64,000 nt of DNA from NCBI GenBank assembly GCA_902477075.1, contig CABSFU010000006.1:757-64756 (forward strand), read 5' to 3'. Numbering within the stretch: position 1 is the stretch's first letter; every line of letters starts with the position of its first letter. Below are positions 24,848 to 26,828 of this stretch, piece by piece. The translations under genes and the position numbers were made by a program. The notes below the pieces were generated by a model, which did not search any database, was not told the origin of the DNA, and saw nothing but the letters and a program-made list of their open reading frames with translations. This DNA is from an uncultured Bacillales bacterium. Its GTDB lineage: Bacteria > Bacillota_I > Bacilli_A > RF39 > UBA660.

Positions 24848-24885
24848 AAAAAGATGGTTCATTAATTGAATCATCTTTCATTTTG
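24844..24885. terminator. bidirectional hairpin terminator between the relaxase and the cargo operon
   Basis: 12-bp stem AAAGATGGTTCA / TGAATCATCTTT with an A-run on the left and a T-rich tract on the right. Confidence 0.55.
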
Positions 24886-25101
24886 ACTTAAATTTATTAA
24901 TTGAGTATAAACATTTTTTATTTCATTTTCTGGTATTTGTAAATCCCTTAATATTGAATATGTATATTCAATACTCATATTTAAAAAGCAATCTTTTTGA
25001 TTTAGTATATTTCTAATTAACTCATATTTTTTTAATTCTTCAGGATTTTCTTTATTTGCTTCTATGTATTTTTCAGTAATCATTTTAAGTTTATCTATCA
25101 T
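24871..25101 (-). CDS. hypothetical small helical protein, 76 aa (unit 2 cargo)
   Basis: Its start overlaps the stop of the 576-aa ORF (ATGA at 25098-25101). No family recognised. Confidence 0.6.
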   Translation of the reverse strand: MIDKLKMITEKYIEANKENPEELKKYELIRNILNQKDCFLNMSIEYTYSILRDLQIPENEIKNVYTQLINLSQNER

Positions 25102-26828
25102 CTTTTCATTCCTCCATATTCAATAATACCAGGAATTCTTGGATCATCTTTTTCAACATATTCAAGTTTACCATCATCAAATTTTGTTTGTAATTCTTCT
25201 TTTGCAATAGGAACAAGTTCATGATTAGGATTAAAATAATAATAAACATTTTGTTCTGAGTTTTCTTCAAAATTTTGACCATTTAATGTAAATATAGCAC
25301 TAGCCATAGCAACTTTTCCTTCTTCGAATGGTTCATTATTTCTTACTATTGTCACACGAATATTATTCTTTCTTTGTTCCTCAGTAAATAGTATTTTTCT
25401 CAATTGCAATACATATGATAATGAATCAATTCCTAACATTCCAGTTGAATTCACTTTACTAACTAGAATTGATAGTCTTTCATTTAAACTAATATCTTGA
25501 ATATTGTTTGTTATATGTGAATATTCTTCTAATAACTCAGCTAATGTTTGGATATGTTCAACAGGTTTTCTTTCACTTAAACTTTTCTCTTGTTGAGCAA
25601 TTAATTGATACATTTTAGTTAATGATTGTTTAAACTCTTGTTGTGTTTGTTGATTTCTATTAACACACTTTAATCCAACTAATGGTTGATTAAGTTTTGC
25701 TTGCATAATATCTCCTTGAAGTATAGAAGTAACTGAATCAGCACTTACCAAAAATTTATCTGATCTAAATTCTAGGTTTGCATGTCCAGCTCCATATGCT
25801 TCTCCAACCATATTTTTATAATCACTACTAAAATGAATGCCCAATTGATTTAACAATTTTGAATATATTAAATTAAATTCAAAGCATACAACTTTATTAT
25901 TTTCTAGTGTAATTGATGAAACGTAATCTGTACTCTTGTGTTTTTCTGTGGCTACACCTTTTTGATTAACTGCATAATATTCTTCATCATAAGTCAGTAA
26001 TTTACACATTTTTATATAAATATAAATTGCTTTTTCTAAATCAGTAGTATTTTCAGGAATTCCCGAAATAATTTCATGTTCTAAATTACTGTCTATCTTG
26101 ATGCTTTGATATTTAGTATCAGTTGTTGTTAAATGTTTATTTATAGCTTGTAAATCTATTTTTTGTAATGTTCCAATATCTCTATAACGATTAGCAACAA
26201 TATCAGGCATTAAATATTCTTCCAATGCTTTATTTTCTCTAAAAAATTTAAATGCAGCATAAATAAAATATTCCTTAGGTATTTCATTTATTTCTTTCAT
26301 ATCTACACTAGAACATAAATTATCAAATTGTTCATCAGGTAATTGCATTAAAGAAATTAATTGTTCAGTAGGAATAGAATACTTATTTCCATCAATATCT
26401 ATATTATATTTGTTTCCTTTATGCTTTTCTAAAAATTTCTCAAATGAGATACTATTTTTTAAACTATCTAATTTTTGTTGTTCATCAGGTTGTAATACAA
26501 TTTGTCCCGATGATATTAATTGCTCTAAGGCTTTTATAATTGTGCTTTTTTTATAGTAAATTGAACCTCCAGTATCTCCACCTATAATATAGCAAACTGC
26601 GAAGTTATTTATATCGCCATTAAAGTATCTTGAAGCATATTCAAAATAAAAATCATTATTTAAAATTCTCTTTAAAAATTCTATTGATACATCTTCAGAA
26701 TTAACCTTAACTTTTTCACCATTTCTTATTTGTTCTACATCCTCTCTTGTTGTAAATAATGTATATTCTGCCATATTTCTTAAATATGGATATTTTTCCA
26801 TCCATTGTTCAACTGTTAACTCTTCCAC
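25098..26828 (-). CDS. hypothetical 576-aa protein with a transglutaminase-like (papain-fold) core
   Basis: Segment LEKAIYIYIKMCKLLTYDEE...VVCFEFNLIYSKLLNQLGIHF...GAGHANLEF...SADSV shows Cys, His and Asp spacing (34 and 15 residues) typical of transglutaminase-like cysteine proteases. No signal peptide. Confidence 0.7.
   Translation of the reverse strand: MEELTVEQWMEKYPYLRNMAEYTLFTTREDVEQIRNGEKVKVNSEDVSIEFLKRILNNDFYFEYASRYFNGDINNFAVCYIIGGDTGGSIYYKKSTIIKALEQLISSGQIVLQPDEQQKLDSLKNSISFEKFLEKHKGNKYNIDIDGNKYSIPTEQLISLMQLPDEQFDNLCSSVDMKEINEIPKEYFIYAAFKFFRENKALEEYLMPDIVANRYRDIGTLQKIDLQAINKHLTTTDTKYQSIKIDSNLEHEIISGIPENTTDLEKAIYIYIKMCKLLTYDEEYYAVNQKGVATEKHKSTDYVSSITLENNKVVCFEFNLIYSKLLNQLGIHFSSDYKNMVGEAYGAGHANLEFRSDKFLVSADSVTSILQGDIMQAKLNQPLVGLKCVNRNQQTQQEFKQSLTKMYQLIAQQEKSLSERKPVEHIQTLAELLEEYSHITNNIQDISLNERLSILVSKVNSTGMLGIDSLSYVLQLRKILFTEEQRKNNIRVTIVRNNEPFEEGKVAMASAIFTLNGQNFEENSEQNVYYYFNPNHELVPIAKEELQTKFDDGKLEYVEKDDPRIPGIIEYGGMKR

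Follow-up and report, generated by a model that had tools for sequence, protein, structure and literature searches.

What is encoded by a two-gene cassette that lies between tRNA-derived repeats in the genome of an uncultured Bacillales bacterium, and what is the very small second protein for? The window analysed here is a 64,000-nucleotide (nt) stretch of contig CABSFU010000006.1, with a G+C content of about 25%. All positions, including those of minus-strand features, are window positions, and labels such as L075, L077 and L092 denote loci or contigs in other genomes. On the minus strand of the window, the gene for a protein of 576 amino acids (aa; 25098-26828, GTG start) overlaps the gene for an acidic 76-aa partner, modelled as four helices (24871-25101). 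An initial annotation, made from the letters and their open reading frames (ORFs), took the large protein for a cytoplasmic transglutaminase-like enzyme and saw in the pair a fit to toxin/immunity, effector/modulator or anti-defence modules. Our results confirm the observation and support this interpretation in part. By its predicted fold, the 576-aa protein represents a new family inside the superfamily that unites papain, the transglutaminases and the arylamine N-acetyltransferases (NATs), with a core nearer to the NATs than to classical transglutaminases. The pair may best be read as a cytoplasmic enzyme of two subunits that works by acyl transfer or as an amidase and travels as mobile cargo, a reading to which we assign a probability of roughly 0.42.

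The ORFs are taken to be real genes rather than chance because the homologues number in the hundreds, their length is conserved and three residues, C315, H349 and D364, do not vary. Searches with the 576-aa query recovered 486 homologues when the database was clustered at 90% and, at 50% identity, 739 clusters, 329 of which score below 1e-30. Family members are nearly always 560-580 aa long. Across 58 sequences, reaching down to 30% identity, the three residues are invariant together with D225, Y271, Y280, F318, D373, K378, G385 and N390, and some 20 polar residues around the triad are invariant or nearly so. The motifs quoted in the initial annotation were all located in the protein: LEKAIYIYI at residues 264-272, YDEE at 280-283, VVCFEF with C315, GAGHANLEF with H349 and SADSV with D364. 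Its cytoplasmic placement holds as well, since the 576-aa protein has no signal peptide or membrane segment, the highest Kyte-Doolittle 19-residue mean being 1.07. Both proteins have an isoelectric point (pI) of about 5.1, which is acidic.

An AlphaFold model of the 576-aa protein, with 32 homologues in the alignment, reached a predicted local distance difference test (pLDDT) score of 86.5 and a predicted template-modelling (pTM) score of 0.81. It divides the chain into an N-terminal alpha/beta region (residues 1-250), a catalytic core (about 255-400) that holds C315, H349 and D364, and a C-terminal region of helices and beta-sheet (401-576). By the secondary structure of the model, C315 forms the N-terminus of helix 315-328, H349 directly precedes strand 351-356 and D364 ends strand 359-364. 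A cysteine at a helix N-terminus is thus followed by a histidine and an aspartate on a beta-hairpin, all three conserved, and this predicted placement is that of a papain fold. The Cys-His-Asp triad inferred earlier from the motifs has therefore stood, with each residue on the expected helix or hairpin. The class assigned to it calls for correction: Transglut_core (PF01841) matched neither the window protein at E<=0.1 nor any of the 58 members at E<=0.05, and NATs outrank transglutaminases among the structural matches.

With Foldseek against the PDB, the top five matches are all NATs (4nv7, 2bsz, 1w4t, 2pqt and 4guz; probability 0.93-0.99). Transglutaminase-like proteases rank below them (3isr at probability 0.28-0.63 and E 0.5-2.5; 3kd4 at probability 0.35), and vasohibin (6jzc) lower still, at 0.11. 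A giant-virus NAT also heads the matches from a library of viral structures (E=2e-3). When the family was aligned by hhalign with NAT core segments from PDB sequences, VVC[FY]EFN was placed on GYC[FY]ExN (E=1.4e-4, probability 53%); on the catalytic helix, GGYCFELN of NATs corresponds to VVCFEFN of the family. The spacing from histidine to aspartate is 15 residues (His-x14-Asp) both in the 576-aa protein and in NAT 1e2t. For the N-terminal 250 and the C-terminal 175 residues, which are confidently folded in the model, no match was found.

Apart from these structural matches, the family is without annotation, and the earlier remark that its function is undescribed was borne out. Pfam, NCBIfam, PHROGs, PADLOC and PDB sequence searches returned nothing meaningful for either the 576-aa or the 76-aa protein, and 58 diverse family members compared with Pfam gave no meaningful match. 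The few source names attached to homologues all read 'hypothetical protein', and literature searches yielded no description of the 576-aa family. A collection of one genome per species contains 74 family loci. Nearly all of the hosts are assemblies labelled 'Bacilli' or 'Tenericutes', of uncultured bacteria from the gut of humans, rabbits, mice and ruminants, and several hosts possess sporulation genes (for example Spo0A, SpoIIIAH, CotJB and YabG). Near the module itself, the 'Bacilli'/'Tenericutes' hosts L077-L081 and L092-L094 have genes for Spo0A, SpoIIIAH, a GerM-like protein, CotJB and YlbD. The family is common in gut metagenome assemblies, where the index of the assembly collection has about 175-180 blocks for each of two close variants.

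The second question concerns the 76-aa protein, whose coupling to the enzyme had been proposed from the overlap of their genes. The stop codon of the larger gene (TGA) and the start codon of the smaller (ATG) overlap as ATGA, the junction reading AAAAGATGATAG, and 29 of 54 homologous enzyme-partner pairs share this overlap of 4 nt. A ribosome-binding site, AGGAGG, was read at 26839-26834 on the minus strand ahead of the 576-aa gene. A promoter-like site (26863-26893, minus strand), identified by consensus match, combines TTGATA (26893-26888), a 19-nt spacer and an extended -10 element, TGATATAAT (26871-26863); this region is conserved in L075 at 98.6%. Downstream, a terminator scan placed a bidirectional hairpin with a T-run at 24850-24878, common to the 76-aa gene and a convergent 86-aa gene, and L077 has kept it too. 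The two genes thus appear to be one transcription unit, running from predicted promoter to predicted terminator as a self-contained cassette. No regulatory RNA was found in the region, where Rfam yields just two tRNAs.

A hidden Markov model (HMM) of the partner locates it immediately downstream of the enzyme, on the same strand, in 62 of the 74 loci, or in 62 of the 66 enzyme copies that are full-length and intact and have downstream sequence. The 12 loci without it comprise two cut by contig ends, one frameshifted enzyme, five N-terminally truncated enzymes and four full-length ones. Pairwise identities of enzyme and partner correlate (r=0.73), and the partner, at a mean pairwise identity of 52%, is nearly as conserved as the catalytic core (56.5%), the N and C regions standing at 33% and 38.5%. 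No other gene family is conserved around the module. From sequence comparison, then, the pair seems genuinely coupled, both co-translated and co-inherited. AlphaFold renders the partner as a compact body of four helices (pLDDT 85.7) with no structural relative in the PDB (best Foldseek E=2.9) and no recognisable DNA-binding domain. The N-truncated members (366-468 aa; L068, L069, L070, L074 and L040) keep the triad and lack the partner. In L042 and L072, a full-length partner-less enzyme lies directly upstream of a C39-peptidase ABC exporter.

Two adjacent genes with an ATGA overlap, a single predicted promoter and a single predicted terminator are also what a toxin-antitoxin module would present, and an autonomous, translationally coupled operon of this kind speaks for one. 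The enzyme would then modify an essential cytoplasmic target that the 76-aa protein neutralises, and the module would stabilise its element or, by abortive infection, resist phage. We consider this unlikely, if still a serious contender. The triad is intact in all nine partner-less relatives, four of them full-length, so that the enzyme does occur without its supposed antidote. An antidote might moreover be expected to diverge faster than this partner does, and the partner is acidic, with neither a recognisable DNA-binding domain nor a structural match. A partner of such high conservation, translated in coupled fashion and absent beside some triad-intact enzymes, fits a stoichiometric subunit or regulator better than an antidote.

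The same strict co-occurrence and 1:1 coupled expression, deduced from the gene arrangement, might alternatively mean that the 76-aa protein is the dedicated substrate of the enzyme and is itself acylated, cleaved or cross-linked, in the way that papain-fold enzymes process modifiers and precursors. Its very high conservation and its predicted ability to fold by itself into a compact four-helix form agree with this. Against it, the small protein has no invariant Lys, Gln, Cys or C-terminal motif fit for modification (several lineages have another residue in place of C38, and the length of the C-terminus is variable), and enzymes with an intact triad exist where there is no partner to act upon. 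We regard this possibility as quite improbable.

That the pair rides in a mobile-element cargo slot, as had been suggested, was borne out by tRNA-Gly-like repeats flanking the unit and by cassettes of 98.5-99.2% identity in two other chromosomal settings. Positions 24856-27002 of the window match L075 at 98.6% identity within wholly different flanks, and the identity ends at 27002, right after the core TCGCTCCA. The L075 cassette lies 87 base pairs (bp) from a tRNA-Cys, where the terminator that follows the tRNAs in the window is also present. Positions 24510-27003 match L092 at 99.2%, the identity ending at 27003. This L092 block starts with the final 28 bp of the relaxase gene and also takes in the 86-aa gene, the cassette and the attachment-site-like (att-like) core; a small backbone gene and a tRNA-Gly adjoin it directly in L092, which resembles a decayed element in which the cassette has outlasted recombinase and relaxase. 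In sister contigs of L092, other recombinase/relaxase elements are inserted at the same tRNA end. A third copy, of the L077 type, is 92% identical to the window in nucleotides and 91% in protein, and the adjacent Zip and LytR proteins of its host are just 46-49% identical to those of the window. The same cargo thus occupies unrelated chromosomal settings in L075, L092 and L077, each with its own flanks. In L089, a relative of the window region, the relaxase and 86-aa genes abut the gene for a 330-aa protein with no cassette between.

From near-identical copies in unrelated flanks, with homology ending at the att core, it follows that the pair is, on sequence grounds, mobile cargo in this sub-lineage; most of its distant relatives sit among housekeeping genes. 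The cassette appears to have moved recently between chromosomal backgrounds of uncultured low-GC gut Bacilli. The housekeeping setting of those relatives, and a stable position in L077-type and L092-type hosts across the contigs read, would suit a resident chromosomal pair beside an integration hot spot, or even a catalytically silent scaffold. Both are very improbable in our estimation: the 99.2% block takes in the relaxase 3' end and the 86-aa gene, homology with both L075 and L092 stops at the att core, 91% protein identity was found between hosts whose Zip and LytR proteins have diverged so far, and the triad and some 20 polar residues around it vary little or not at all.

Two further observations concern these sites. 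In L075, perfect 19-bp direct repeats, AGAAACGGGGTTCATATCA, flank the cassette, together with an inverted copy that forms a 17-bp hairpin (repeat positions 9762-9780, 11967-11983 and 11991-12009; none expected by chance); they may represent a second kind of insertion junction. Strain variation is visible among L092-L099, some contigs being free of the element and others having different serine-recombinase/MobV elements at the tRNA-Gly end, whose cargo includes, for example, a radical-SAM protein or an AAA protein similar to ClpB.

The wider genomic context bears on the toxin-antidote alternative in both directions. Horizontal transfer to variable locations would suit it, as would carriage by a mobilisable element, since such elements often carry toxin-antitoxin modules (PMC5704250). 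So would the tandem duplicates of the module in some genomes and the excess of tRNA genes near it: 12 of 72 loci have a tRNA no more than 400 bp away, whereas only 5.2% of the control genes do (odds ratio 3.7, p=0.001). Against it stand the flanking genes in other genomes (150, non-redundant), which are mainly housekeeping genes (tRNA synthetases, enolase, CTP synthase, Hsp90 and acetate kinase) and show no enrichment of defence or mobile-element genes; a defence-island context was rejected on these grounds. No relatives came to light when 50,697 phage and 72,556 plasmid records were searched by tblastn and IMG/VR was scanned by pattern, so a phage or plasmid origin was rejected as well. PADLOC gave chance-level matches only (best E=0.005), and just one of the 74 loci has a pseudogenised enzyme. 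Together with the conserved partner and the triads that persist without it, these results leave the toxin/immunity, effector/modulator and anti-defence roles first put forward without support.

Returning to the two-subunit enzyme, we propose the following course of events. Cys315 would form a thioester acyl-enzyme, His349 and Asp364 serving as its charge relay; thioester catalysis on this cysteine is proposed because the triad is invariant. The acyl group would then pass to an amine acceptor, as in NAT or transglutaminase chemistry, or to water, as in amidase or peptidase chemistry, and the NAT-like helix of the model favours acyl transfer to an amine. Acceptor or substrate would be a small molecule or a protein of the cytoplasm. 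The 76-aa protein would act as a stoichiometric accessory or regulatory subunit, as SVBP does with vasohibin, rather than as an antidote, and the cassette would be kept through benefit to its host in the gut, not through addiction.

Several observations weigh against this proposal. The NAT matches from Foldseek are weak (E 0.13-0.3, about 130 columns aligned, target-normalised TM-score about 0.3), the TM-scores being low because only about 130 residues align. The RGG that precedes the cysteine in NATs is absent from the 576-aa protein, which has NNKVVC instead; the NAT model (PF00797) gave no Pfam match for the window protein or the 58 members; and a 58-member profile found nothing among PDB sequences. 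The partner may serve only the N-terminal region of the enzyme, because all five N-truncated variants are without it. Finally, the survival of the cassette in L092 and L075, where it has outlasted recombinase and relaxase as the rest of the element decayed, fits an addiction module equally well.

A more speculative variant, which we hold to be doubtful, is a new kind of module for conflict or maintenance. In it, a thiol acyltransferase of NAT fold, gated by the four-helix partner, would transfer acyl groups to an essential cellular target with an amine, such as a lysine of a protein or an aminoacyl-tRNA. The module would thereby retain tRNA-linked mobile elements, or make phage infections abort, in gut Bacilli of reduced genome. 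GNAT toxins, which acetylate aminoacyl-tRNA, would be its analogues on an unrelated fold.

What, then, is the unit that carries the cassette in the window? A tRNA-Cys (16423-16496; ARAGORN and Rfam) precedes a tRNA-Gly(GCC) (16503-16576, plus strand; ARAGORN, Rfam and alignment), the 3' end and downstream terminator of which are copied at 20.9 kb and 27.0 kb. The proximal att-like core, ATCGCTCCAT, lies at 20909-20918 on the plus strand (repeat D13, aligned with the tRNA-Gly 3' end and terminator), and the distal core, likewise ATCGCTCCAT and aligned with the tRNA-Gly 3' end and terminator, at 26985-26994 on the plus strand. Between them, all on the plus strand, come a small 101-aa gene, the first after the proximal core (20984-21289; paralog at 16642-16947, remnant at 27095-27173); a large serine recombinase, present as ORFs of 261 and 342 aa in one frame (21502-23340; Pfam Resolvase, Recombinase and Zn_ribbon_recom); a Mob_Pre (MobV-type) relaxase (23533-24537; PF01076, E=5e-13); and the 86-aa backbone gene (24587-24847), part of the 99.2% block common to L092. 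The convergent 76-aa and 576-aa genes follow. Recombinase and relaxase thus share one unit bounded by repeats at 20909 and 26985, as expected of a mobilisable element.

An in-frame TAA at 22285-22287 interrupts the recombinase gene. The independent metagenome contigs L082, L084 and L085 show the identical interrupted state, which makes a real nonsense mutation probable, and with it an element that has lost the ability to excise by itself.

From 16423 to 27200, three mobilisable-element-like units are arranged in tandem from the tRNA-Cys/tRNA-Gly pair. Each has a tRNA-Gly 3'-end copy and a small gene at its start and, at its end, a bidirectional terminator facing a minus-strand cargo operon; the cargo is, unit by unit, a helicase with an 84-aa and a 302-aa protein, the 576/76 pair, and the 330-aa protein. 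The 302-aa protein was considered as another transglutaminase-like protein and rejected. Two of the tandem units are without recombinase and relaxase genes. The region is read as a tandem array because tRNA-Gly 3'-end copies and backbone-gene remnants recur, the latter at 16.6-17.1 kb and 27.08-27.17 kb. Tandem accretion and decayed cis-mobilisable remnants have been described for integrative mobilisable elements (PMC5704250). Two small unannotated backbone families are involved, one of about 100 aa after each att copy (16642-16947 and 20984-21289) and one of 86 aa after the relaxase, and remnants of both are fused in a 25-codon ORF at 27095-27173. The att core has a third exact copy within a TetR-family gene (34683-35240), at 34993-35002, which is doubtful, as its flanks fail to align; the 12-mer TATCGCTCCATT (34991-35002) equals the att-like site at 27.0 kb and is either a distal att remnant or chance.

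The 330-aa protein of the next unit (27184-28176, minus strand) had been described as a shorter paralog of the enzyme. It exists, with motifs in a like order, but is only a remote relative from a separate family: it is a divergent protein of Transglut_core type, with PF01841 matches in 11 of 24 homologues. Comparison of the two proteins gives a BLASTP E of 0.09, and hhalign, which brings the C, H and D columns of the two families into register, gives E=0.0022 and a probability of 13%, so close paralogy was rejected. In related genomes (L086 and L089-L091), the 330-aa gene directly follows a ResIII/HA helicase gene and an 85-86-aa gene, a linkage broken in the window.

These findings matter in several respects. 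A large and widespread family, with 739 clusters at 50% identity, has been without annotation in any library searched. It would bring a new architecture to the papain/transglutaminase/NAT superfamily, consisting of a 250-residue N region, a NAT-like core, a C region and a dedicated four-helix subunit. Small tRNA-targeting mobilisable elements appear to sustain active exchange between uncultured low-GC gut Bacilli, and the locus is a clear case of tandem accretion and decay of such elements in organisms never cultured. NAT-type enzymes acylate drugs and amine metabolites, and for that reason a mobile NAT-like enzyme of the gut could bear on xenobiotic or metabolite chemistry. Should the pair prove to be toxin and antidote after all, it would define a new toxin fold.

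Comparison with known systems can be made at the level of the element, of the gene pair and of the enzyme. Tn4451-type integrative mobilisable elements and their decayed remnants (PMC5704250) resemble the window unit in a backbone of serine recombinase and Mob_Pre relaxase with cargo at one end, in tandem accretion with decayed copies and in junctions where the 3' end of a tRNA is directly repeated. The window unit differs in the in-frame stop of its recombinase; the tRNA-integrating examples listed in the same source use tyrosine recombinases, unlike the window unit.

For the pair, the closest organisational analogy is vasohibin, a tubulin carboxypeptidase of transglutaminase-like type, with SVBP, its helical partner of 66 aa (PMC6642083, PMC4866520). 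In both, a thiol enzyme of papain/transglutaminase fold, as predicted here, is joined by a very small all-helical subunit, obligate in the case of SVBP. The analogy is one of organisation only: vasohibin is eukaryotic, has a Cys-His-Ser triad and a single-helix partner and is a weak structural match (0.11), and the partners show no evidence of homology.

For the enzyme, the Transglut_core proteases (PF01841; 3isr, 3kd4) share fold class and triad order, and the LEK...Y.Y helix that precedes the cysteine helix recurs in the neighbouring 330-aa protein. Their structural matches are weaker (0.28-0.63), however, with 0 of 58 members matching PF01841 and hhalign to the 330-aa family reaching only 13%. 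The NATs (PF00797; 1e2t, 2bsz, 4nv7, 1w4t) differ in that the 576-aa protein has no HMM-level match to them and lacks their RGG before the cysteine, is twice as long, with some 250 extra N-terminal residues, and belongs with a dedicated small partner, of which NATs have none. They are the best structural matches, and share with the 576-aa family the order Cys-His-Asp, the 15-residue spacing from histidine to aspartate, C-[FY]-E-x-N on the catalytic helix, a cytoplasmic location and membership of the papain-like superfamily (classification in PMC10318531).

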